DNA of 64,000 bases from Parcubacteria group bacterium. Lineage in GTDB: Bacteria > Patescibacteriota > Patescibacteriia > UBA2169. The first letter of the stretch is position 1, and each line of letters begins with the position of its first letter. The stretch covers positions 31,664 to 95,663 of the forward strand of contig JACOYR010000006.1 in assembly GCA_016181765.1 (NCBI GenBank), in the 5' to 3' direction. A program made the translations under genes and the position numbers. This document shows, in pieces, positions 5,335-51,660 of the stretch. Under the pieces are notes generated by a model that did no database searches, was not told where the DNA came from, and saw only the letters and a program-made list of their open reading frames with translations.

Positions 5335-6981
5335 ATGCTAGACTCACCCTATGAAACACGCGCCCGCGCTCGCACTCGCCGCATTCCTGCTGGCGCTCTA
5401 GAGGACAGCGGAGAGTTTGTGGCGGCGAGCCACACGCTCTCCATCCCGCACCCGTCCGGGTATCCGACCTATCTTCTGACCGCAAAACTCGCCTCACTGG
5501 TTCCGTTTTTGCCTACGGTTGTTGAACGCGTCAATTTCGTGTCCGCCATCTGGACCATCGCGGCCGCGGTGCTCTTGTACTATGCCCTGGCAGGGCTGTT
5601 TGCGAGCCGCCTCATCGCCTCTTCGCTTGCGCTCCTCTTCGCCACAAGCCCAATGGTCTGGCAACAGGCAACCTATGCGGAAGTGTATTCATTGAACACG
5701 TTTTTTTTCGTCTTGTTGCTCTGGTCAGGGCTCTGCTACGTTAAACGTAAGACCAACAAACGGCTGTGCCTGTTTTTCTTTGTGTACGGATTAAGCCTCA
5801 CCAACCACTTTTTGCCGCTTGTTCTCTCGCCGCTCATTATCATCTGGCTCCTCAAGGAGCGTCCTTTGACCAAAAGCATAGTACTCTACCTCAAAGCATT
5901 CAGCGCATGGCTTCTCGGGCTTGTCCCTTATCTCTACATTCCCATCCGGAACCAGATGGACCCCGCATTCTCCTGGTTCGGCGGCAACGCGGAAAAAATC
6001 CTCACTTACAATATCGCCTACGGCTGGCGCCTGAACGAACACACGCTCTCGTACCTCGCTGACGTTGCGCACCAGATGAACATAAGTTTCGGGATGCTCG
6101 GCATTGCCGCATTTGTTGCCGGGATCGGAGTGATGGTGCGCTACCGGCATCCGGCGCGCTTCTGGCTCCTCGCGGTACTCGCCCTGCTCTCCATTGGATT
6201 GGTGATTGTTTTGACAAACGGCAGGCCCTACGCCGAGTTTGAGAGCCAGTTCTACCAGACGCTCTATGTCCCCTTTCTCCTTATGTCGCTCCTGCCTATT
6301 GGATGGCTCCTGCAACAATTAGCACAGAGCACGTATAGGCTCATCATCTTCTACACTACTCTGCTTGCGATTATGGCGTGGCCCGCAATTGACCTCGGCA
6401 ATCGGTTCCTAAAAAATGACCGTTCGGACTACGTGCTCATGGAAAATTACACGCGGGGACTGCTTGAATCACTCCCCGCAGACGGGACGCTGTACAGCCA
6501 CCATGACCACATTCTAAATGACACGCTGGTGTTTGGCCTGGCGTACCAGCAGTATGTGGCCGGAGTGCGGGATGATGTTGCCATTTATTCTCTGACGCCG
6601 GTATTCCCTCCGCCGGACGATTTTCCGCTTGGTGAAAATCGGAAACAAAACTATGAGCCAATACTCAAGCAGTACCTTGATGAGCGCTACGCCCCAGAAG
6701 ACGTCAGCGCCACGTTTCCGCAACCACGGGACGGCATCCCTGCCACGGCCCCGGAAAACTATGCCGCAGACAACTTGTACTTGCCGAGCGTGAATGACAG
6801 CCTCTACCACCGCTCCCTTGTGGCCAAGTACTACTATGACCTCGCCGCGTATACGTACTCCCGAAACAACCTCCCGAGCGGCCAGCGCTTCTTGGTGCAG
6901 GCCATTGAATATGATCCGGACCAGTTCAGCGATTACTACTACCAAACCTTAGCCATGCGCAGCTACTATTTTGACAATTGA
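5335..6981 (+). CDS. polytopic membrane protein, DUF2723/TMEM260-like (putative GT-C type glycosyltransferase)
   Basis: SHTLSIPHPSGYPTYLL motif near N-terminus followed by multiple hydrophobic segments; N-terminus may be incomplete. Confidence 0.55.
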   Translation: MLDSPYETRARARTRRIPAGALEDSGEFVAASHTLSIPHPSGYPTYLLTAKLASLVPFLPTVVERVNFVSAIWTIAAAVLLYYALAGLFASRLIASSLALLFATSPMVWQQATYAEVYSLNTFFFVLLLWSGLCYVKRKTNKRLCLFFFVYGLSLTNHFLPLVLSPLIIIWLLKERPLTKSIVLYLKAFSAWLLGLVPYLYIPIRNQMDPAFSWFGGNAEKILTYNIAYGWRLNEHTLSYLADVAHQMNISFGMLGIAAFVAGIGVMVRYRHPARFWLLAVLALLSIGLVIVLTNGRPYAEFESQFYQTLYVPFLLMSLLPIGWLLQQLAQSTYRLIIFYTTLLAIMAWPAIDLGNRFLKNDRSDYVLMENYTRGLLESLPADGTLYSHHDHILNDTLVFGLAYQQYVAGVRDDVAIYSLTPVFPPPDDFPLGENRKQNYEPILKQYLDERYAPEDVSATFPQPRDGIPATAPENYAADNLYLPSVNDSLYHRSLVAKYYYDLAAYTYSRNNLPSGQRFLVQAIEYDPDQFSDYYYQTLAMRSYYFDN

Positions 6982-7147: not shown

Positions 7148-7221
7148 GCGGGTATCGTATAGTGGCAATACCACAGCTTTCCAAGCTGTTGCCGGGGGTT
7201 CGATTCCCCCTACCCGCTCCA
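7148..7221 (+). tRNA. tRNA-Gly (anticodon TCC)
   Basis: Acceptor gcgggta/tacccgc, anticodon stem acagc/gctgt, loop tttccaa, T-arm ggggg-ttcgatt-ccccc, CCA encoded. Confidence 0.9.
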
Positions 7222-7267
7222 GGATTCCATTGATTTCATCACTGATCTGTGATACATTTACCGCGTT

Positions 7268-7534
7268 ATGCAAACTGCAGTGCAAACATCCCCAACAGTG
7301 GCGGTGCCAAAAAAAATCCGTGAAAAAGGATTTGTAGTGTTGGGTTTGGACGAGTACGAGGCGCTGAAGAGCGCGGCAATCCCCACCTACCATCTTACCG
7401 GAGCCGCTGCGGAAGAATTGGACCGCGAGGTGGAACAGGCCCTCAAGGAAGACCGGGAAGGCAAGACAATAGAGGCTTCTTCAATACGTGAAGCAATGTC
7501 AGTCTATGATGCACAAGGAGGTATCAAGGATTAA
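7268..7534 (+). CDS. Phd/YefM-type antitoxin (putative)
   Basis: GFVVLGLDEYEALKSAAIP pattern; directly upstream of and overlapping a RelE-like toxin gene; imperfect palindrome atcactgatctgtgata at 7237-7253 as possible operator. Confidence 0.5.
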   Translation: MQTAVQTSPTVAVPKKIREKGFVVLGLDEYEALKSAAIPTYHLTGAAAEELDREVEQALKEDREGKTIEASSIREAMSVYDAQGGIKD

Positions 7535-7781
7535 ATACAGTCCGCAATTTTTACGATCAGCCAAAAAACTCCCCCGCCATATTCAGACAAAGCTGGAGGC
7601 GCGGGAGTTGATTTTTAAGAATAACGCTTTTGACACCCGTCTTGAAACGCATAAATTGCACGGCAAAAACCGCGAGGCCTGGGCATACTCCATAGATCAT
7701 AGTTATCGGGTTAAATTTTTATTCAACGACAACGGAAGTGTGTTGTACATCAAGGCCGGCACGCACGATGAGGTGTATTAA
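7509..7781 (+). CDS. RelE/ParE family toxin
   Basis: ...KLPRHIQTKLEARELIF...HKLHGKNREAWAYSIDHSYRVKFLFNDNGSVLYIKAGTHDEVY matches RelE/ParE fold signature; low GC. Confidence 0.7.
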   Translation: MHKEVSRIKYSPQFLRSAKKLPRHIQTKLEARELIFKNNAFDTRLETHKLHGKNREAWAYSIDHSYRVKFLFNDNGSVLYIKAGTHDEVY

Positions 7782-7850
7782 TTAAACGCACCCGCTCCAC
7801 AATAAAACTTTTTTTAAATTTGCCGACCATTTCGGTGACGGCGCGCCAAA

Positions 7851-8627
7851 ATGAAAACATCTTTTAATGAAAAACAGTTAGAAATTTTGACAGAGCTTGG
7901 ACTTAGTAAAATCCAGGCGATTTTGTATTTAACCTCGCTAAAACACGGAATATTATCTGTTTTGGAATTATCTAAAATCACCAAGATAAATAGACAACAA
8001 ATTTACTCAGAAGCAGAAAAATTAGTTGATCTTGGAATTTACGAGCTGACGCGGAAGCAAGGAAGAAAATATATCCCCGCAAATCCAGCGAAATTAGTAA
8101 AAGTTGGAAAGAAAAAAATTGATGAGACCGAAAAAATTTTAACAAAGTTGTCGGTAATCTTGCCTGAATTTGAGGCTTTTTCAGAACCAAAGAAAAATAA
8201 AGTTGTTGTGAAATATTTTCAGGGTTTGCCAAAAATTAAAGAAACGTATGAAGAAGAATTGGCGGCTTCTAAAAATACAGAAGTTTTATCTCTTGCCGGT
8301 TCAATTGACAATATTTTTGAATTTTTCACTGAATCATACTGGGATAAGTGGAATAAAAAATTTATAAAACATGACTCAAGAAGTCGGATGCTAGTCCACA
8401 ATTCTGATATTGCTCGCAAGACCGCCGAGGATGACAAACGATACAAACGAGAAACTCGGTGGCTTCAGGATTTTCCTCTTAAAGTAAATATTGATGTTTT
8501 CAATAATACTGTTCTTATTGTCTCTTTTCACGACGAAATTGCTATTTGGATTGAAAGCCATATGTTGGCACAATCCTATCGCATAATGTTTAATACTCTT
8601 TGGGAAGTCGCAAAACCCTTCAAATAA
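7851..8627 (+). CDS. TrmB-like HTH transcriptional regulator (low-GC)
   Basis: N-terminal winged-helix pattern LTELGLSKIQAILYLTSLKHGILSVLELSKITKINRQQIYSEAEKLVDLGIYE; about 33% GC versus about 60% flanks. Confidence 0.5.
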   Translation: MKTSFNEKQLEILTELGLSKIQAILYLTSLKHGILSVLELSKITKINRQQIYSEAEKLVDLGIYELTRKQGRKYIPANPAKLVKVGKKKIDETEKILTKLSVILPEFEAFSEPKKNKVVVKYFQGLPKIKETYEEELAASKNTEVLSLAGSIDNIFEFFTESYWDKWNKKFIKHDSRSRMLVHNSDIARKTAEDDKRYKRETRWLQDFPLKVNIDVFNNTVLIVSFHDEIAIWIESHMLAQSYRIMFNTLWEVAKPFK

Positions 8628-31622: not shown

Positions 31623-34550
31623 ATGCCCATTCCGCATTTCAAACACAGCCGCTCCTGGGGCGACCAGAACAGCCGCCCCCGGTATTCCCAGCGACGCATC
31701 CAACAGAACAAGCTCGGAGGTACACCGGCTAGAAGAATGCCCAGCTTTAAGCGCGGCAACGTAAAAGCAATCATCGCATTCCTCATCCCCTATGCCCTCA
31801 TTGCCGCGGCCCTGGGCATCCTTTTTGTGCTGGCACTGTTTGCGTGGTACTCGCGAAACCTGCCCACCCCGGACAAAATTATTGACAGATCAGTCGCCCA
31901 AAGTACTAAAATTTACGATTCTACAGGGGAGCACGTCCTGTTTGAAGCGTTTGACACCCAGCGCCGCACCATCATCCCCCTTGAGCAGATCCCGGAGCAC
32001 GTACGGAAAGGGACTATCCTGATTGAAGACAAAAACTTCTACCTCCACAAAGGGTTTGACACCAAGGGCATCCTGCGCGCGGTCGTTAAAAACCTCGCAT
32101 GCTTGTGCAAGGCAGAGGGCGGCTCAACGCTCACCCAGCAACTCATCAAGAACGCCATCCTGACGAACGAAAAAGCGTTCTCCCGCAAGATCAAGGAGTT
32201 CGTGCTCGCGTACCAGATTGAGCGCAAGTTTGACAAAGACCAGATCCTCCAGCTCTACTTCAACGAAATCCCCTACGGCTCAAGCGCGTACGGCATTGAG
32301 TCCGCGAGCCAGTTCTACCTGGGCAAGAGCGCCAAAGATCTCACAGTCGCGGAAGGCGCGTACCTGGCGGCGCTGCCGCGGGCGCCCACGTACTACTCCC
32401 CGTACGGCTCGCATTTGGAGGATTTGAAAAACCGGAAAAACCACATCATCAGCCTGCTCTTGGATGCCGGGGACCTCGCCGAGGAAGAGGCCCAGGCCGC
32501 GCAAAATGAGGAGGTCGTGTTCGCCGAAAAATCAAACCTCTTAAACCGCGCCCCGCACTTCGTGATCGGGGTGCGCGAAGAGTTGGCCTCCAAGTACGGG
32601 GAGCGGGAGGTTGAGCAGGGAGGCCTCAAGGTGACTACTACCCTTGATTGGGACATGCAGCAGCAAGCCGAAGCCGCGGTCGCGGAATTTGCCGAACGGA
32701 ACGCGGAACAATACAACGCCACGAACGCGTCCCTGGTTGCGCTTGACCCAAAAACCGGGCACATCCTTGCCATGGTCGGCTCCCGCGACTACTTTAACGA
32801 AGAGATTGACGGCAACTTCAACGTGGCAACCCAGGGGGCGCGCCAGCCCGGCTCCTCCTTTAAGCCGTTCGTGTATGCGGCTGGGTTTGAGAAAGGCTAC
32901 ACCGATAAAACCACGCTCTGGGACGTGGTGACCGAATTCGGCAGAGGCGCGGACGGGAGGGAATACGTGCCCCACAACTATGACCTCAAAGAGCACGGCC
33001 CGCTATCCGTAAGAGCCGCGCTCCAGGGCTCCATCAACATTCCGGCAGTCAAAATGCTCTATTTGGTCGGGCCCGGAAACGTGATTAAAAAAGCCGAAGA
33101 AATCGGGTACACCACGTTTGAAGACCCGGATCGCTATGGGCTCTCGTTGGTCTTGGGAGGCGCCGAGGTAAGGCTCATTGAGCACACGCAGGCGTATGCC
33201 ATGCTCGCGAACGGCGGGATCGCAAAACCCGCGGTCTCCATACTCAAAGTGGAAGACGCACGCGGCAAAGTGCTCCAGGAGCACGAGGAAGAAGAGGGAA
33301 CGCGCGTTATGGGCGAACAGGTGGTGCGGCTCTTATCTGACGTGCTCTCGGACAATGATGCGCGCGCGTACGTGTTCGGCGCGAGCAACTACCTCACCCT
33401 CGGAGGGCGCCCGGTTGCCGCAAAAACCGGGACCACCAATGACTACCGGGACGCGTGGACCTTGGGCTACACGCCGAGCCTTGCGGCAGGGGTCTGGGTC
33501 GGCAACAGCGACTTCTCCGAAATGAAGCGCGGGGCGGACGGGTCCGTGGTTGCGGCCCCCATCTGGAACCGGTTCATGCGCGCAGCGCTTGAGGGCAGGC
33601 CCATTGAATACTTCCCCAAGCCGGAGATTGAGTACCCAAACAAGCCGGTGTTGCGTGGGGACCTTGAGGGCGGCACCCCGGTCCGCATTGACCGCGCAAG
33701 CGGCTTGCTCGCAACCGAGATGACTCCTGAATCCTTTATTGAAGAAAAAATATTCCGCACCGGCCACTCCATCCTGTACTACGTTGACCCGGAGGACCCG
33801 CTTGGGCCAACTCCCTCCGAGGGCGACCGGGACCCTGCCTACCCCAAGTGGGAAGTCGCGGTGGAGCGCTGGATGGCGGAGAATGATTGGAAAGCTGATG
33901 AAGGTTCTATTCCGACCGAATATGACAACCTGCACGTGTTTGAAAATAAGCCCTCAATTTCAATTATTGAGCCAAGCGACGGCCAGACCGTAAGCGGGGA
34001 CATCATCTTTTTCCGCGTTGAGGCTTCGGCTCCGCGCGGCATCTCGCGCGTGGAGTTCTATGTTGATAATGAGCTGGTTGCCGAAAGCCGGAGCGCGCCG
34101 TACACCGGGCGCTACATCCCGAACCCTTCAGTTGCGAACGGCTTCCACGCGTTGCGGGCCGTCGCGTATGATGACATTGACAACAGCGAAAGCGTGTCCG
34201 CAAACTTCAACCTGCTCCTGCAAAAGACTGCCTTGTCCGCGAGCTGGACCGCGCCAAAGAGCAATGCCGTATTCAGCGAGTTTGATTTCCCGGTTGCCAT
34301 TGAGCTCACTCTTCCGGGCGCTGACATTGCCCAAGTGGAGCTCTTTGCCGCGCCCAAAGCAAAACCGAGCCAGTACGCGCTCATCAGCACACTCTCCCCG
34401 AACAGCACAACCGTTAAAACCACCTGGGACGCCATACCGCCGCTCGGCGGGGACTACGAAATCTATGCCGTGCTCTGGGACAGCCAAAACACCCCGCACC
34501 GCGTGGCCGGGGTGGATGTTGTGGTTGACGTGCCGGAGGGCGTTGAATAA
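31623..34550 (+). CDS. class A penicillin-binding protein (transglycosylase + transpeptidase) with about 300-aa C-terminal extension; alternative start 31737
   Basis: GT51 motifs (EDKNFYLHKGFD, GGSTLTQQL); TP motifs SSFK, SIN, KTGTT. Confidence 0.85.
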   Translation: MPIPHFKHSRSWGDQNSRPRYSQRRIQQNKLGGTPARRMPSFKRGNVKAIIAFLIPYALIAAALGILFVLALFAWYSRNLPTPDKIIDRSVAQSTKIYDSTGEHVLFEAFDTQRRTIIPLEQIPEHVRKGTILIEDKNFYLHKGFDTKGILRAVVKNLACLCKAEGGSTLTQQLIKNAILTNEKAFSRKIKEFVLAYQIERKFDKDQILQLYFNEIPYGSSAYGIESASQFYLGKSAKDLTVAEGAYLAALPRAPTYYSPYGSHLEDLKNRKNHIISLLLDAGDLAEEEAQAAQNEEVVFAEKSNLLNRAPHFVIGVREELASKYGEREVEQGGLKVTTTLDWDMQQQAEAAVAEFAERNAEQYNATNASLVALDPKTGHILAMVGSRDYFNEEIDGNFNVATQGARQPGSSFKPFVYAAGFEKGYTDKTTLWDVVTEFGRGADGREYVPHNYDLKEHGPLSVRAALQGSINIPAVKMLYLVGPGNVIKKAEEIGYTTFEDPDRYGLSLVLGGAEVRLIEHTQAYAMLANGGIAKPAVSILKVEDARGKVLQEHEEEEGTRVMGEQVVRLLSDVLSDNDARAYVFGASNYLTLGGRPVAAKTGTTNDYRDAWTLGYTPSLAAGVWVGNSDFSEMKRGADGSVVAAPIWNRFMRAALEGRPIEYFPKPEIEYPNKPVLRGDLEGGTPVRIDRASGLLATEMTPESFIEEKIFRTGHSILYYVDPEDPLGPTPSEGDRDPAYPKWEVAVERWMAENDWKADEGSIPTEYDNLHVFENKPSISIIEPSDGQTVSGDIIFFRVEASAPRGISRVEFYVDNELVAESRSAPYTGRYIPNPSVANGFHALRAVAYDDIDNSESVSANFNLLLQKTALSASWTAPKSNAVFSEFDFPVAIELTLPGADIAQVELFAAPKAKPSQYALISTLSPNSTTVKTTWDAIPPLGGDYEIYAVLWDSQNTPHRVAGVDVVVDVPEGVE

Positions 34551-42908: not shown

Positions 42909-45386
42909 ATGCCTAAAAAGGAAGAACAAGCAAAACCCCAAAACCCCATCGGCACCATAGAGCCGCAACCCATTGTGGACGAAATGCAGCGCGCCTATTT
43001 GGACTACGCCATGAGCGTGATCGTGTCGCGCGCTTTGCCGGACGTGCGGGACGGCTTAAAGCCGGTCCACCGCCGCATCCTCTACGCCATGTGGACGCTC
43101 GGGCTTAAGTCCTCCGCCAAGTTCCGCAAGAGCGCAACCGTCGTGGGAGAAGTATTGGGCAAGTACCACCCGCACGGGGACGTTGCGGTGTACGACGCCT
43201 TGGTGCGCATGGCCCAGGACTTTTCCATGCGCGAGGTTCTGGTGCACGGCCAGGGCAACTTCGGGTCCATGGACGGAGACGGGGCAGCTGCCATGCGCTA
43301 CACCGAAGTAAAACTTTCTAAAATCGCGGAAGAGCTTTTGGCGGATATAGAAAAAGAAACCGTCAGCTTCACGGACAACTACGACGGCACCCAAAAAGAA
43401 CCGCGCGTTTTGCCGGCAAAACTGCCGAACCTGCTCTTAAACGGCACCCTGGGCATTGCCGTGGGCATGGCAACCAACATTCCCCCGCACAACCTTTCCG
43501 AGCTCGCTCTCGGCATTTCCGCGGTGCTGGATGACGCTGACATTGACATCAATGAACTCGCCAAAATCGTAAAAGGTCCGGACTTCCCGACCGGCGGCAT
43601 CATCTACAACAGAGACGACATCAAGCAGGCCTACGCAACTGGAAAGGGCGGCATTGTCATGCGCGGAGTCACGGACATTGTGGAGTCCAAAGGCGGTACG
43701 CACGACATCATCATCACCGAGGTTCCGTTCCAGGTGAACAAGGCTGATTTGATCGCCAAAATCGCGGAACTCGTAAAGGAGAAAAAAATTGAGGGCATCC
43801 GCGACCTGCGGGATGAGTCCGATAAGGACGGAGTGCGCGTGGTGATTGAACTAAAGAAAGACACGTACCCGCAAAAAATCTTAAACCGCCTCTTTAAGCT
43901 CACTGCCCTGCAGGCAACCTTCCACGTAAACATGCTCGCCTTGGTGGACGGCATCCAGCCGCGCGTGCTCACGTTGAAGAGCATCTTTGAAGAGTTCATC
44001 AAGCACCGCAAAACCGTCATCAAGGCTAGGACCGAATTTGATTTGGCGCGCGCCAAAGCGCGGGCCCACATCTTGGAAGGCTTGGTTAAGGCAATCGGCA
44101 TTATTGATAAAGTGATTGCCCTGATCAAAAAATCCAAGGACCGGGACGAGGCGCGGGCGGGATTGATGAAGGCGTTCAAATTCACGGAACTGCAGGCCAA
44201 TGCCATCCTTGACATGCGCCTGTCCCAGCTTGCAAACCTGGAGCGCGCAAAACTGGAAGACGAACTCAAGGAAAAGCGCGCCTGGATTGCGGAGCTTGAG
44301 GCAATCCTCGCAAGCCCCAAGAAAGTTGTTTCCATCATCAAGGGCGAGCTCAAAGAGCTCAAGGAAGCGTACGGCGAAGAGCGTCGCACTAAGATTGTTG
44401 CCGGTGCAGTTGATACGTTTTCGCAGGAAGATTTGATTCCGAATGAGGAAATGGTGGTCATGATCACGCGGGACGGCTACATCAAGCGCATGGCACCGGA
44501 CACCTTTAAGACCCAAGGCCGCGGCGGCAAGGGCGTGGTGGGCCTGACCACCAAGGAGGAGGACGAAGTGTCCATCTTCTTTACGGGCTTAACGCACTCA
44601 GACATCCTCTTCTTTACCACGCGCGGAAGAGTATTTCAGCTCAAGGGCTACGACATTCCGGTAGCAAGCCGCACGGCTAAGGGCTCGTCGCTCGTCAACT
44701 TCCTGCAGATTGCGGGCGAAGAAAAGGTGAATGTGGTGCTGTCGCTGGATGACATGAAAGACGCTAAGTTCCTGGTGATGGTCACGCGCGGGGGCACCAT
44801 CAAGAAAGTTGACGTCAATGACTTTGGCCACGTGCGCCGCAGCGGCCTCATTGCCATCAAGCTCAAAGAGGGCGACTCTCTGCGCTGGGTCAAGCCCTCG
44901 GGCGGGGATGACGAAATCATGCTCGTGTCCCAGGCTGGCCAGGCAATCCGGTTTGAAGAAGCGGACGTGCGCCCCATGGGCCGCGCCGCGGCCGGGGTGC
45001 GCGGCATCCGCCTCAAGAAAGGCGACCACGTGGTTGGCATGGACATTTTTAATCCCAAGGCCCAGAAAGACACCACCCTCCTCGTGGTCATGGCTCAAGG
45101 CTATGGCAAGCAATCCCCGGTTTTGGAATACAAGGTCCAGTCCCGCGGCGGATCCGGCATTAAAACCGCGAACGTCACCGCCAAAACCGGCGAGGTTGTG
45201 GGCGCGCGCTTGCTTGATCCCGCGACCGTGGATGAAAAGACGGATGTGCTCGCCATTTCCGCCAAGGGCCAAACCATCCGGTTGCCCCTAAAGTCCATCA
45301 ACAAGCTCGGACGGGCCACGCAGGGGGTGCGCATCATGCGCTTCAAGCAGCCCGGAGACCGCGTGGCAAATGTGACGCTGGTGTAA
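42909..45386 (+). CDS. gyrA: DNA gyrase subunit A
   Basis: [28 protein letters not shown] active-site region with catalytic Tyr context; 825 aa with C-terminal beta-pinwheel repeats. Confidence 0.9.
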
Positions 45387-45433
45387 AATTATGGAAAAGA
45401 GTGTGCTACAATATATTTAAAATTATAAAATAG

Positions 45434-45853
45434 ATGACACTAAAAGGAAATATCACCGATTACTCAAGTCAAAGAAAACGCAATATGGCAAAAATTGATA
45501 TAAATTGGTCAAAGCTTATCTCTCTTAATACGGGAGAGATAGAAAAGTTAGGAAGTGTTGGGGGAGTTTACCGTATTTCCAAAAAAGCAGATGATGGAAA
45601 ATATTATGTTTTTTTTGTTGGAAGTGCTGAAAACATAAAAAATAAGTTGTTACACCATCAATCCAGTGAAGAAAAAAATATTCGCCTACAAAAATATTTA
45701 TCACAAGGAGGAGATATTGTTTTCAGATATGCCCTAGTGCCGGACAGAAGTATACAACAAGCTATTGAGAAACAGATGTACAGACACTATATTCCAGAAT
45801 ACAACCCCGAAGAGCCAAAAAGTCCTTTGGATGTAGAAGCAAACCTAAATTAA
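45434..45853 (+). CDS. GIY-YIG nuclease-domain protein (low GC)
   Basis: GVYRISKKADDGKYYVFFVGSAENIKNKLLHH matches GIY...YIG...N spacing; about 36% GC. Confidence 0.55.
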   Translation: MTLKGNITDYSSQRKRNMAKIDINWSKLISLNTGEIEKLGSVGGVYRISKKADDGKYYVFFVGSAENIKNKLLHHQSSEEKNIRLQKYLSQGGDIVFRYALVPDRSIQQAIEKQMYRHYIPEYNPEEPKSPLDVEANLN

Positions 45854-45859
45854 TCAAAA

Positions 45860-46561
45860 ATGACTTTAGTAATGGGGTTAAAATCAAAAAACGGGATTGT
45901 TGTTGCCTCTGACAGTAAAGCTAGTTCTGAAATAACTAGCAATAGTACCGTACAAAAAATTTTCAAATTAGGTAACCATAGCGCTGTTGGTATTGCAGGA
46001 GACGGTGGTCTTGCAATGTATTTTCTCGACCAAATAAAAAGTGGGTTAAATCACGGCACAGGAATTTTAGATTTAGCAGAACAAATACGGATCAAGGGAA
46101 AGGAAAAATTCAACGATTTTTTTGAGGGCTCGCCGCTAGAAAAACGTCCTCATCTCGAACTACTTCTAGCTGGGTATACAAATGATCCTACACCAAAAGC
46201 AGAAATTTATAAATTGAATAGTACAGACAACTTTGTACCCAGGAAAGCTGTTACGGGTTTCGAGTGTATAGGCATACCGTATATTGCGGACTACTTGTTA
46301 AACCGCCTTTACGAGCCTGAAATAAAAGTAGACGCAGGGGAAGAGCTGTGTATATTGTGTATTCAAGAAACTGAAGACCAAGATGCGCGCGTAGGAGGCG
46401 CCACCAGAGTTTATACTTTCTCATCAACTCAAACATTTCAAGAAATTTCAGCCACAGATATAGAAAAACTAAAAGAAAAAAACAAACAGTTTCAAATTAG
46501 ACAAAAAAGTAGGTTCTATCCCGAAGACCCAGATTCGGGCACAGACAATCCCACTTCTTAG
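45860..46561 (+). CDS. proteasome beta-subunit/HslV-like Ntn hydrolase (low GC)
   Basis: N-terminus MTLVMGLKSKNGIVVASDSKASSEITSNSTVQKIFKLGNHSAVGIAGDGGLAMYF: Thr right after Met, GxxxD and GAGDG-like pattern of T1 peptidases. Confidence 0.55.
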   Translation: MTLVMGLKSKNGIVVASDSKASSEITSNSTVQKIFKLGNHSAVGIAGDGGLAMYFLDQIKSGLNHGTGILDLAEQIRIKGKEKFNDFFEGSPLEKRPHLELLLAGYTNDPTPKAEIYKLNSTDNFVPRKAVTGFECIGIPYIADYLLNRLYEPEIKVDAGEELCILCIQETEDQDARVGGATRVYTFSSTQTFQEISATDIEKLKEKNKQFQIRQKSRFYPEDPDSGTDNPTS

Positions 46562-46707
46562 CACTTTATAAACACAAATCCTAAGCCAACAATCCACCAA
46601 TCCGATGGGTTGTTTTTGTATAAAAAAGCACCCTCCCCCGCAGACGATGTTGCCATCTGCGAAAGAAGGGTGCGGTCGGCGGAGCCAGAAGGTTATGCCG
46701 ACTTGGG

Positions 46708-47136
46708 CTAGTTGGTCTCAACCCAGATGGCGTCGGACTCCAGCACGTTGCTGTACTGGCCCGAGCCGGGCTTGGTCTCGACGTCGCCGTCCAGCACGAT
46801 GACCACAAAGAGCTGGACGCGCCCGGCCGTGAGGTTCTCGGTGATGGTTCGCGCAGCGAGATCCTTGAGCGTCTTCAGAGCGTCGTGGAACTGCTTTGCT
46901 GTGCGTCCGTTCCGGGAAACGCCAGTGAGCCGCAGCTCCACGCCGAGGTACCCGCCGACCGCGACCATGGGGTCGGGTTCCTGGACGTAGTACTCGGCCG
47001 GACGTTCGGCTGGGTCCTTCACACCGAGACAGCCGCTCACAACGTTCTGGAGGAAGGTCCTGGCAAATGCCGCGCTGCTGAACGCTGCGAACAGCGTCAT
47101 AGGGGCTTCTCTGGAAATCACTGCCTTCACCTTCAT
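46708..47136 (-). CDS. hypothetical protein
   Basis: ORF with high-GC codon usage. Confidence 0.4.
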   Translation of the reverse strand: MKVKAVISREAPMTLFAAFSSAAFARTFLQNVVSGCLGVKDPAERPAEYYVQEPDPMVAVGGYLGVELRLTGVSRNGRTAKQFHDALKTLKDLAARTITENLTAGRVQLFVVIVLDGDVETKPGSGQYSNVLESDAIWVETN

Positions 47137-47311
47137 GGTTTCTAGCCTTTCGCTAGGGGTTGTTGGGAACACTTCGCAATTTTACGCGAAGACTGCATCT
47201 TATCACAAAACTATGCGTCTTGTCAAGCATCTGTATTTCATGATATAGTTCGTGCTTGTATCAACGGTGTTCGCGTGTTACTCTGTATCTGTCACTCATT
47301 TCACAAACACT

Positions 47312-50451: not shown

Positions 50452-50528
50452 GGGCCCTTAGCTCAGCTGGCTAGAGCGCTTCCATGGCATGGAAGAGGCC
50501 ACCGGTTCAAATCCGGTAGGGTCCACCA
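50452..50528 (+). tRNA. tRNA-Ala (anticodon GGC)
   Basis: G3:U70 pair present; anticodon stem cttcc/ggaag, loop atggcat; CCA encoded; preceded by aactctgacgc. Confidence 0.85.
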
Positions 50529-50609
50529 TAATTTGTCAAAATTGTCAACTTTTTCATGATGGGTTGAACAAAATTTACATGGGTTGAACAAAAATTATGA
50601 ATCTGACGC

Positions 50610-50685
50610 GTCCTTATAGCTCAATTGGATAGAGCAGTGGCGTCCTAAGCCATTGATCCAGGTTCAAGTCCTGGTAAGGACACCA
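50610..50685 (+). tRNA. tRNA-Arg (anticodon CCT)
   Basis: Acceptor gtcctta/taaggac, anticodon loop gtcctaa, T-arm ccagg-ttcaagt-cctgg; preceded by aatctgacgc. Confidence 0.8.
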
Positions 50686-50731
50686 GACAAATTGTTCAGT
50701 GTTAAACTTTAAAAATACCTCTTTCTTACAA

Positions 50732-50847
50732 ATTTTCTCTTGGGCTCACCGCAGGCGAGTTAAGAGAAAATTTGAGAGGAGTAGGCGTGCGGAGGGTGTA
50801 GTCAGTGCTGTAAGGCACAGAAGAAACCCGCAGCGCGACTACGACGA
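50732..50847 (+). ncRNA. candidate structured RNA element (copy B) immediately 5' of tRNA-Ala(CGC)
   Basis: attttctc-ttgggctcaccgcaggcgagttaa-gagaaaat-ttgagaggagtaggcg...gcgactacgacga then tRNA. Confidence 0.45.
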
Positions 50848-50923
50848 GGGCCTGTAGCTCAGTTGGTAGAGCGCCACATTCGCATTGTGGAGGCCAGGAG
50901 TTCAAATCTCCTCAGGTCCACCA
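50848..50923 (+). tRNA. tRNA-Ala (anticodon CGC)
   Basis: G3:U70 pair; anticodon stem ccaca/tgtgg, loop ttcgcat; CCA encoded. Confidence 0.85.
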
Positions 50924-51318
50924 GACAAGTATTGTTTAAAAAATCCTGACAACATTTGTTGTTAATAGTATGTATTTGAGTTATTCACATGTCCTGTGGA
51001 TTTCCTGTGAGAAAGGCTAATATTAGCCAAATTAAATCTATGTGAATAACTTATCACTTATTTGTTTATTTATTGTGCATATACGCTTATCATCACTTGT
51101 CAGGAAAAATCCTGACAATTTTTATACACACATACTCAATAAGATGCGAATAAATAAATAAGAGTTATTAGTGTTATATTTTTATAAATAAACACTAGTG
51201 TTAGCCTTAAATTTTACTTATTCACCTATTCCACAGTATTATAGTTATTAATATTAGACAGTATTCTAAAATGAACATATAATAAATCATGCTTTGTCTT
51301 TAAATAAACACTTAAAAT
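50924..51318. promoter_or_regulatory. about 400-bp AT-rich (about 28% GC) non-coding region with multiple direct and inverted repeats upstream of trxA
   Basis: aaaatcctgacaa twice; palindrome ggctaatattagcc at about 51013 and again at about 51640 between trxA and trxB; inverted gagttattcaca/tgtgaataactt. Confidence 0.4.
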
Positions 51319-51642
51319 ATGCCAGCGCTAGAACTTACGGACCAAAATTTTAATCAAGAGGTTGAGCAAGTTAAGGGAGTGGTCCTTGTAGATTTTTGGG
51401 CGCCGTGGTGCGGGCCGTGCAAAATCCAGGGCCCCATAATTGATGAAATTGCGGATCAGGCCAAAGATGTAAAAATAACAAAACTCAATGTAGATGAAAA
51501 CCAGGAGTCCGGGTCAAAATATGGAGTTATGAGTATTCCAACAATCATTATATTCAAAGACGGCAAACCAATAGAAATATTAGTTGGGTTACATAAAAAA
51601 GACGATATACAGGCAAAGATTGATATAGTAAAAAATAGCTAA
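51319..51642 (+). CDS. trxA: thioredoxin
   Basis: WCGPCK active site. Confidence 0.85.
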   Translation: MPALELTDQNFNQEVEQVKGVVLVDFWAPWCGPCKIQGPIIDEIADQAKDVKITKLNVDENQESGSKYGVMSIPTIIIFKDGKPIEILVGLHKKDDIQAKIDIVKNS

Positions 51643-51660
51643 TATTAGCCAAAATGTAGT

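Follow-up and report, generated by a model that had tools for sequence, protein, structure and literature searches.

A putatively mobile cassette that pairs a GIY-YIG-fold protein with a proteasome-family protease downstream of gyrA in a Parcubacteria genome

Directly after gyrA in the genome of a Parcubacteria group bacterium lies an island of about 1.2 kb with a low content of guanine plus cytosine (GC) that encodes two proteins on the same strand. The question raised by this locus is what the two proteins are, whether they belong together and how they came to be there. The locus was analysed within a stretch of 64,000 nucleotides (positions 31,664–95,663 of contig JACOYR010000006.1, assembly GCA_016181765.1), which is called the window here and the numbering of which is used throughout; the features are listed in Table 1. 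In 300-nucleotide steps the GC content falls from 0.59 (45100–45399) to 0.30–0.41 (45400–46599) and returns to 0.60 (46600–46899). An earlier note on this DNA, made from the sequence alone, had described a low-GC two-gene cassette after gyrA in a 60% GC context. The cassette is as described, with two co-directional open reading frames (ORFs) that together have a GC content of 0.37; the context was slightly overstated, the values being 0.56 and 0.55 for the 3-kb flanks and about 0.55 for the whole window. The analysis presented here suggests that the island is a self-contained operon of two genes that was acquired horizontally. We put the probability that it is a mobile operon in which a GIY-YIG-fold protein (gene 1) is obligately paired with an active T1 protease (gene 2) at roughly 85%.

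The product of gene 2 begins with Met-Thr-Leu-Val and contains the sequence GIAGDGG at residues 44–50. It matches the Pfam Proteasome family (PF00227) over residues 4–185 of 233 (E-value of 4.1e-16; 59.6 bits against a cutoff of 22.4), in agreement with the T1 peptidase assignment that the earlier note had based on the Thr following the initiator Met and on the glycine-rich pattern. The AlphaFold2 model is of good quality (pLDDT, the predicted local distance difference test, of 85.6; pTM, the predicted template-modelling score, of 0.81), and the top 50 PDB matches found with Foldseek are all 20S proteasome subunits (E-values of about 1e-12), with query-normalised TM-scores of 0.72–0.78 for the beta subunits from Rhodococcus, Mycobacterium, Archaeoglobus and Thermoplasma. 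The model has a long C-terminal helix (residues 198–219), and the tail of the protein carries a conserved FYPED motif. Conservation was assessed in 42 full-length, distinct relatives with less than 95% identity to each other. Met1, Thr2, Leu3, Asp18, Lys33 and Gly47 (counting the initiator Met) are invariant in this set; Thr2, Asp18, Lys33 and Gly47 are the equivalents of Thr1, Asp17, Lys33 and Gly47 of the proteasome family and align with Thr1, Glu17 and Lys33 of the Thermoplasma beta subunit. The equivalent of Asp166, Asp175, is kept in 38 of the 42. The specificity of methionine aminopeptidase permits the removal of a Met that precedes Thr. Given this specificity and the lack of a propeptide, removal of the initiator Met would expose Thr1 of the gene 2 product. 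Judged from these residues, gene 2 is likely to encode an active Thr protease of the proteasome family.

Within the proteasome family, the protein does not fall into an established class. The family profile matches archaeal alpha and beta subunits about equally well, and scores 30 bits against the Thermoplasma beta subunit and 16 bits against Escherichia coli HslV (for an HslV sequence entered by hand). The gene 2 product itself scores 41, 29 and 31 bits against the NCBIfam models TIGR03634, TIGR03690 and TIGR03633, the cutoffs of which are 224, 192 and 287 bits. Because no NCBIfam equivalog cutoff is reached, we regard it as a proteasome-family protein that is neither a 20S subunit nor HslV. 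None of the NCBIfam HslV models matched it at E < 0.1; a weak, partial match to a PHROG labelled 'HslV family' extends over 54 residues (E-value of 7e-5). In GenBank, the protein is a 'hypothetical protein' of 229 residues (MBI2051108.1) that begins at Met5; this model lacks Met-Thr-Leu-Val and hence the catalytic Thr, and should be corrected. The start at 45860 is supported by the conservation of Met-Thr-Leu in all 42 relatives.

Gene 1 is assigned to the GIY-YIG fold with the support of profile comparisons and the predicted structure. The window protein scores 21.1 bits against Pfam GIY-YIG (PF01541; E-value of 4e-4), which is 1.5 bits short of the cutoff of 22.6, and precomputed PF01541 matches are listed for three of 25 relatives. 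The family profile matches UvrC (PDB entry 1yd6) with an E-value of 0.0098. The AlphaFold2 model (pLDDT of 80.5) aligns with the GIY-YIG domain of UvrC in the same entry (Foldseek E-value of 5.6e-4, probability of 1.0 and target-normalised TM-score of 0.69) and with many phage GIY-YIG homing or intron endonucleases (probabilities of 0.96–1.0). The GIY-YIG assignment of the earlier note is therefore borne out, even though the window protein falls just under the Pfam cutoff. Since GenBank already labels gene 1 as a 'GIY-YIG nuclease family protein', the novelty lies not in the folds but in the strict pairing, the C-terminal tail and the mobility described below. A longer form of gene 1 starting at 45434 (139 residues) was considered and rejected: other cassettes are homologous at the DNA level only from 45471 onwards, and the relatives have 116–126 residues, mostly 122, so that the start is placed at 45485.

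The gene 1 protein is a single domain of about 122 residues without a DNA-binding or other additional domain. It has a short N-terminal extension with the invariant residues Trp8 and Leu11, and a conserved C-terminal tail that ends in Ala-Asn-Leu-Asn. The catalytic positions, located by profile alignment to UvrC, are Tyr29, Phe44, Lys54, His58, Glu95 and Asn107, so two of the six are substituted in the window protein (the second Tyr is replaced by Phe, and the catalytic Arg by Lys). Across the 42 relatives the first Tyr position is Tyr in 33 and Phe in nine, the second is Tyr in 27 and Phe in 15, the Arg position is Arg in 20, Lys in ten and Glu in nine, and His is present in 30; the catalytic Glu and Asn occur in all 42. 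The full canonical signature YYRHEN is found in 20 of the 42 and the window type YFKHEN in seven, and in about nine four catalytic positions are lost together (for example FFELEN).

The two genes occur together in both search directions. When the GTDB species representatives were searched with the protease, all 21 loci found have a GIY gene immediately upstream, as do all 14 further loci from contig look-ups. When metagenome contigs were searched with the GIY protein, the protease was present wherever there was room downstream among the 55 loci, bar two distant relatives that lack the C-terminal tail. The GIY-YIG gene and the protease gene are an obligate, tightly spaced pair, with −4 to +13 nucleotides between them. 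At less than 95% identity, 51 distinct cassettes can be told apart. The pair is rare, with 21 matches among approximately 185,579 species representatives for the patterns used. The median ratio of nonsynonymous to synonymous divergence (dN/dS, by the method of Nei and Gojobori, NG86) is 0.13 for the GIY gene and 0.054 for the protease gene, with dS often saturated, and the pairwise distances of the two proteins correlate with r = 0.79 (861 pairs). These sequence comparisons indicate that both genes are under purifying selection and diverge together. A sequence identical to the window cassette is present in independent read sets (L098 and L099; loci are given by labels of this kind where they have to be told apart). 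The co-occurrence check thus turned a pairing that the earlier note had merely called unusual into a two-gene unit that is strictly conserved across genomes.

A frameshift splits the protease gene in one locus (L032:6001-6691, in the complete Berkelbacteria chromosome OY969116.1) and the GIY gene in another (L091:375-729). These cases are either occasional cassette decay or sequencing errors.

The boundaries of the island were fixed by comparison with a sister metagenome-assembled genome (MAG), a contig of which (JACOVK010000061.1, L097) was found through a homologue search with the protein encoded downstream of the island. The two genomes are syntenic here, with nucleotide identities of 80% and 89% on the two sides. 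The region homologous to the window stops at 45385 on the left and starts again at 46622 on the right, with a different insert in between; this sets the island edges at 45387 and 46621, with the stop codon of gyrA on one side and, on the other, the terminator of the convergent gene downstream. At the same gyrA-downstream site, the sister contig carries another low-GC insert of 566 bp (L097:6481-7046), which encodes a 134-residue ORF with a weak match to LPD3 (E-value of 5e-4); the site is therefore considered to be an insertion hotspot. The break in GC content, taken together with the different insert in the sister genome, shows that the island at gyrA is a recent lateral gain, in keeping with the horizontal acquisition proposed in the earlier note. 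Neither direct nor inverted terminal repeats bound the island, and no tRNA or Rfam family adjoins it; an insertion signature of the integrase or transposon type is hence absent.

Other cassettes give a similar picture. DNA homology between the window cassette and the others is confined to 45471–46563, which corresponds to the two ORFs, and only four of 528 locus pairs (from 33 loci with flanks) share any homologous gene within two genes of the cassette. In 30 of 34 loci the cassette has a lower GC content than its flanks (Wilcoxon p = 2e-7), and among the loci examined the gap is widest for the window cassette (0.37 against 0.55). These comparisons of homology and composition indicate that the two-gene unit moves between genomes without conserved DNA beyond the ORFs.

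Eight cassette contigs (L015, L016, L024, L028, L029, L031, L033 and L035) belong to MAGs that are labelled as lying outside the Candidate Phyla Radiation (CPR), namely as Gammaproteobacteria, archaeon, Bacteroidia, Planctomycetota, Bacteroidota or Ignavibacteria. For some of these, mis-binning of CPR contigs is the probable explanation. A distinct, more divergent clade of the cassette (49–51% identity) is present in two independent Ignavibacteria MAGs, which suggests that it has spread beyond Patescibacteria.

The C-terminus of the GIY protein distinguishes paired from stand-alone relatives. All 42 paired proteins have a ΦNΦX sequence ([V/A/I/G]-N-[L/F/I]-X) at the very C-terminus, preceded by a conserved Pro and by an acidic linker that is modelled with low confidence. 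The three stand-alone relatives that could be read (L089, L095 and L100) all end directly behind the catalytic Asn, without such a tail. Two of them (L095 and L100) have phage-like contexts, beside a small-terminase-like gene and, in L095, also an HNH-AP2 gene. In the third (L089:1297-3226), the tail-less GIY relative is followed after 45 nucleotides by a HEPN AbiV protein (E-value of 2.4e-20) and then by a protein with a NYN domain, so that a separate conflict module may employ the same small GIY-YIG component here. A profile search of the full library found 391 clusters (50% identity) of small GIY proteins at E ≤ 1e-3, of which many end in a comparable tail while a minority have none; roughly 130 or more clusters at this identity make up the GIY family itself. 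Several ATP-independent activators of the proteasome dock by motifs at their C-terminus, as in the HbYX proteins and in Bpa/PafE with its GQYL sequence. Because the ΦNΦX motif is likewise fixed relative to the free C-terminus, we infer that the tail might bind the protease.

To place the cassettes in their genomic context, 117 proteins encoded within two genes of 33 loci were compared with Pfam and PADLOC. The commonest neighbour families are those of restriction–modification (RM) systems. Type IIG RM enzymes of the Eco57I/MmeI type are found in four loci, where they adjoin the cassette directly (L003:4117-7353, L027:2501-5539, L078:2180-4945 and L012:6203-9421); in three of the four the enzyme is immediately upstream and co-directional. 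These enzymes are divergent, those of L027 and L078 being only about 27% identical. N6_N4 methylases occur in three loci, and AbiEii, NYN and HTH_3 families in two each. One cassette (L035) is flanked by hsdR and a dGTPase-like HD protein, and another (L023) adjoins a fusion of a methyltransferase with Mrr. Large serine recombinases are present at L003 and L036, and a small terminase subunit is encoded near the cassette in another locus. No AAA+ family and no ATP-grasp or transglutaminase family is among the 25 most frequent neighbour Pfam families. The statement of the earlier note that the protease gene has no ATPase partner, with neither HslU nor an Anbu-type operon, is in line with this. 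Together with the lack of an NCBIfam HslV match, it places the family in neither HslV nor Anbu. A full-text search of the literature found no paper that links GIY-YIG proteins with proteasome homologues and none that describes the pair. In the guilt-by-association approach to defence islands, most members of a gene family are expected near known defence genes.

On the basis of the sporadic distribution, the lateral transfer, the RM and abortive-infection (Abi) neighbours and the AbiV-linked relative, a role in conflict or defence is favoured, whether in abortive infection, in anti-phage defence or as an addiction-type cassette. We hold this role tentatively, at slightly less than even odds. 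The defence cassette proposed in the earlier note is thus plausible, and what speaks for it is neighbourhood association. The two products would form a complex of a mobile, ATP-independent protease and a nuclease-fold partner. Since the site of the protease is invariant and that of the nuclease is dispensable in some clades, the protease would be the constant catalytic engine. The GIY-YIG-fold protein would be a nucleic-acid-directed adaptor, cap or co-effector, attached to the protease oligomer through its ΦNΦX tail if the parallel with proteasome activators holds. It may be nuclease-active in the canonical clades, possibly weakened in the clade of the window (Phe44 and Lys54), and a pseudo-nuclease elsewhere. 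A more specific proposal is a new immune or abortive-infection system based on a proteasome homologue, in which a GIY sensor or nuclease caps an ATP-independent ring of Thr proteases and gates or targets proteolysis upon the appearance of foreign nucleic acid; we consider this version doubtful. If true, an orphan bacterial proteasome homologue would for the first time have been assigned a function and a dedicated partner, and the system would circulate as a minimal two-gene cassette among ultra-small CPR bacteria.

Several observations weigh against an active protease with a defence role. The equivalent of Ser169 is Val in 41 of the 42 relatives, and the GSG motif of Ser129 reads Gly-Ile/Val-Pro (GIP), an equivalence that was judged by eye. 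Because Ser169 and apparently also Ser129 are replaced, activity is likely but not guaranteed. The median isoelectric point of the gene 1 family is 6.8, which is near neutral and does not support strong DNA binding. The docking role of the tail is an analogy with the HbYX and GQYL activators. RM or Abi genes lie within two genes of the cassette in at least seven of the 33 loci (about one-fifth, up to about one-third), by a hand count that has no background control, and many cassettes are located between housekeeping genes (gyrA, rpoC/ftsK, rpsI/grpE and tig/clpP). No NCBIfam, PHROG or PADLOC model reached its cutoff for either protein; the best matches in PADLOC-DB 2.0.0, HEase for gene 1 (E-value of 2.3e-4) and PycC for gene 2 (E-value of 0.024), are both unconvincing. 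Searches of IMG/VR, GenBank phages and PLSDB plasmids did not recover the pair, and neither protein occurs in these collections except for the tail-less GIY relative L100, which is in IMG/VR. A phage- or plasmid-borne origin of the pair is consequently unsupported.

The trigger factor/clpP locus has received two cassettes that are unrelated to each other, one upstream of tig (L006:7632-10663) and one between tig and clpP (L064:3614-6796). This could be a coincidence or a link to proteostasis genes.

The variable nuclease site and the invariant protease site bear on several other explanations. The earlier note had raised a selfish-element remnant that is homing-endonuclease-like. In an origin of the homing type, the GIY-YIG protein, as a free-standing homing endonuclease, would spread the cassette into intergenic sites next to conserved genes with the protease as cargo or helper. 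Nothing but the two ORFs is indeed mobile, and a recombinase, terminal repeats and a tRNA target are all absent; some insertions abut the highly conserved genes gyrA, rpoC, rpsI and tig/clpP; the fold of gene 1 matches phage homing endonucleases, and its best, weak PADLOC match is annotated as 'homing endonuclease'. The nearest stand-alone relatives are in phage genomes beside the small terminase subunit, which is a classic position of free-standing homing endonuclease genes. Even so, we find this origin unlikely. The protein has only about 122 residues and no DNA-binding domain; nearly every cassette lies in a different neighbourhood, which argues against site specificity; the nuclease residues are degenerate in about one-quarter to one-half of cassettes that nevertheless remain intact and under purifying selection; and mere cargo would not persist in all 51 cassettes with an invariant active site. 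Similar reasoning applies to an addiction system resembling a toxin–antitoxin pair, in which the GIY-YIG nuclease is the toxin, the protease degrades or sequesters it by way of the disordered C-terminal tail, and loss of the cassette or inhibition of the protease sets the toxin free. The tight operon with overlapping or adjacent ORFs, the mobile and sporadic distribution, the presence of other toxin–antitoxin or Abi genes near some loci and a conserved, disordered acidic tail that a gated protease could thread are all consistent with such a system, but the roughly nine cassettes of the FFELEN and similar types would have no toxin and yet keep both genes under purifying selection, and the role of 'antitoxin' would fall to the larger and better conserved of the two proteins, which has no DNA-binding autoregulatory domain. 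This explanation, too, appears improbable.

An accessory housekeeping function in proteolysis or DNA maintenance, for example the removal of DNA-bound or DNA-crosslinked proteins by a protease that the GIY-YIG fold targets to nucleic acid, would account for a patchy distribution through the streamlining of CPR genomes. The contrast between the two active sites suggests that proteolysis is the essential activity, ATPase-free action on unstructured substrates has been argued for (Fuchs et al., 2021; PMC8665760), and cassettes are found beside grpE, gyrA and rpoC as well as twice at tig/clpP. Against this, the island at gyrA was gained recently and laterally rather than inherited vertically, the pair is rare among species representatives, and it recurs beside RM systems; we judge a housekeeping function to be rather unlikely. 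That both ORFs are non-functional remnants of decaying foreign DNA with recognisable folds, in line with the selfish-element remnant suggested in the earlier note, is hardly credible. The strong GC deviation of the window cassette and the two frameshifted genes elsewhere would fit decay, but neither window ORF is truncated and both retain every residue that is invariant in the family, dN/dS stays far below 1, 42 distinct pairs are intact and an identical sequence was recovered from independent read sets. The selection and conservation data effectively refute the remnant reading.

The remaining features of the island and its surroundings are given in Table 1. The leader is AT-rich, and a consensus scan found no full −35/−10 pair in it; the extended −10 element listed there was recognised by reading the sequence and is promoter-like. 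The insert of the sister contig contains, at about 6490–6640, a promoter close to the consensus (TTGACA-17-TATAAT), then a hairpin of about 60 nucleotides and a rho-independent terminator. This element looks like a small RNA gene, and no Rfam family matched it.

Table 1. Features of the gyrA-downstream locus, in window coordinates
Feature	Positions	Strand	Basis
Gene 2, 233-residue proteasome-family (T1, N-terminal nucleophile hydrolase) protein without propeptide	45860-46561	+	Pfam, AlphaFold2, Foldseek, conservation
Gene 1, 122-residue single-domain protein of predicted GIY-YIG fold	45485-45853	+	Pfam, AlphaFold2, Foldseek, profile comparison with UvrC
Foreign low-GC island (cassette with its own leader and terminator)	45387-46621	+	GC profile; edges of homology to sister contig L097
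Extended −10 promoter-like element TGCTACAAT	45404-45412	+	Reading of the sequence, in the AT-rich leader 45387-45484
Terminator-like hairpin CAATCCGATGGGTTG (46598-46612) followed by a T-run	46598-46622	+	Terminator scan; closes the cassette
gyrA, left flank, host gene outside the cassette	42909-45386	+	ORF translation, Pfam DNA_topoisoIV, synteny with L097; stop codon abuts the island
Convergent host gene of the right flank, 154 residues, function unassigned	46708-47172	−	Synteny with sister genome L097
Terminator hairpin of the right-flank gene	46631-46669	−	Common to the sister genome; right edge of host DNA

Comparable low-GC islands in the window number three in all, including the one downstream of gyrA. 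A second (7148–8627; GC of about 0.38) directly follows a tRNA gene (7148–7218) and contains a 97-residue ORF without a Pfam match and a gene for a 258-residue helix-turn-helix protein of the TrmB type. The sister contig has a TrmB-family gene inserted beside rpmH that is absent from the window. The region 50452–51650 comprises tRNA genes for Ala (GGC), Arg (CCT) and Ala (CGC), then an AT-rich stretch (GC of 0.27 at 50950–51250) and a low-GC thioredoxin gene (51319–51642), and the minimum of the cumulative GC skew of the window falls within it. It could be the region of the replication origin or a further insertion hotspot.

Many bacterial and archaeal proteasome-like proteins have no known partner or function. 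The gene 2 family has a strict partner that is translationally coupled to it, evolves together with it and, unexpectedly, has a nuclease fold. The conserved C-terminal tail of this partner suggests how it and the protease might bind, and the cassette looks like an apparently undescribed partner system for an orphan bacterial proteasome homologue. The pair makes the function of such a homologue an experimentally addressable question. As a mobile cassette that often lands beside restriction–modification genes, it also adds a candidate to the accessory and defence genes of Patescibacteria, a pool that is poorly charted.

Comparison with known systems sets the cassette apart from each of them. The gene 1 protein shares its fold with the N-terminal domain of UvrC and with phage GIY-YIG endonucleases of the I-TevI and Seg types, and the order of its motifs (GVY...(Y/F)VG...(R/K)...H...E...N) aligns with the UvrC residues. 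What sets the family apart from these proteins is an N-terminal extension of its own, an Arg that invariably follows GVY, the ΦNΦX tail and the constant coupling to a protease gene; in some of its clades four catalytic positions are lost. It differs from the GIY-YIG homing endonucleases in lacking a C-terminal DNA-binding domain and a recurrent insertion site (four of 528 locus pairs share a neighbour). The likeness to the HbYX and Bpa GQYL activators, which is one of analogy, lies in a short motif at a fixed distance from the free C-terminus, and the beta subunit of a Bpa/PafE structure (5lzp) is among the structural neighbours of gene 2. In contrast to those activators, the gene 1 motif is ΦNΦX, its fold is that of a nuclease rather than of a ring-forming activator, and there is no alpha ring on which it could dock.

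Gene 2 has the Ntn-hydrolase fold, the Pfam family and the catalytic residues of the 20S beta subunits of archaea and actinobacteria (MEROPS T1). It differs from them in having no alpha subunit, propeptide, nearby ATPase or Pup system, in being carried on a mobile cassette with a GIY-YIG partner and in the replacement of Ser169 and apparently also of Ser129. Its bacterial origin, the lack of a propeptide, a Thr that would be exposed by Met removal and the single protease gene are reminiscent of HslV; however, no hslU is adjacent in the window, where the neighbours are gyrA and the gene without an assigned function, and gene 2 is about 55 residues longer, with the C-terminal helix and tail. The operon of Anbu reportedly includes ATP-grasp, transglutaminase-like and alpha-E proteins. 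These families are neither among the 25 commonest neighbour families of the cassette nor in the annotated loci.

The closest parallels are the orphan proteasome homologues. Fuchs, Alva and Lupas (2021; PMC8665760) described 22 new proteasome homologues, with no genomic context or co-occurrence to suggest a function, and proposed that orphan homologues may act without ATPases on unstructured substrates. The orphan homologues in their catalogue include WPH, PHI, PMI-1 to PMI-6, Anbu and BPH. Like these, gene 2 is prokaryotic, its triad is intact, and it lacks both a propeptide and an AAA+ partner. It resembles WPH (reference WP_040339656.1; compared by description only) in its similarity to both alpha and beta subunits and in its long, H5-like C-terminal helix. 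The representative of PMI-3 (OGZ26396.1) has a CPR-type accession (PMC8665760), but the model of gene 2 lacks the large insertions of the PMI type. What distinguishes gene 2 from all of the orphan homologues in that study is its strict GIY-YIG partner.

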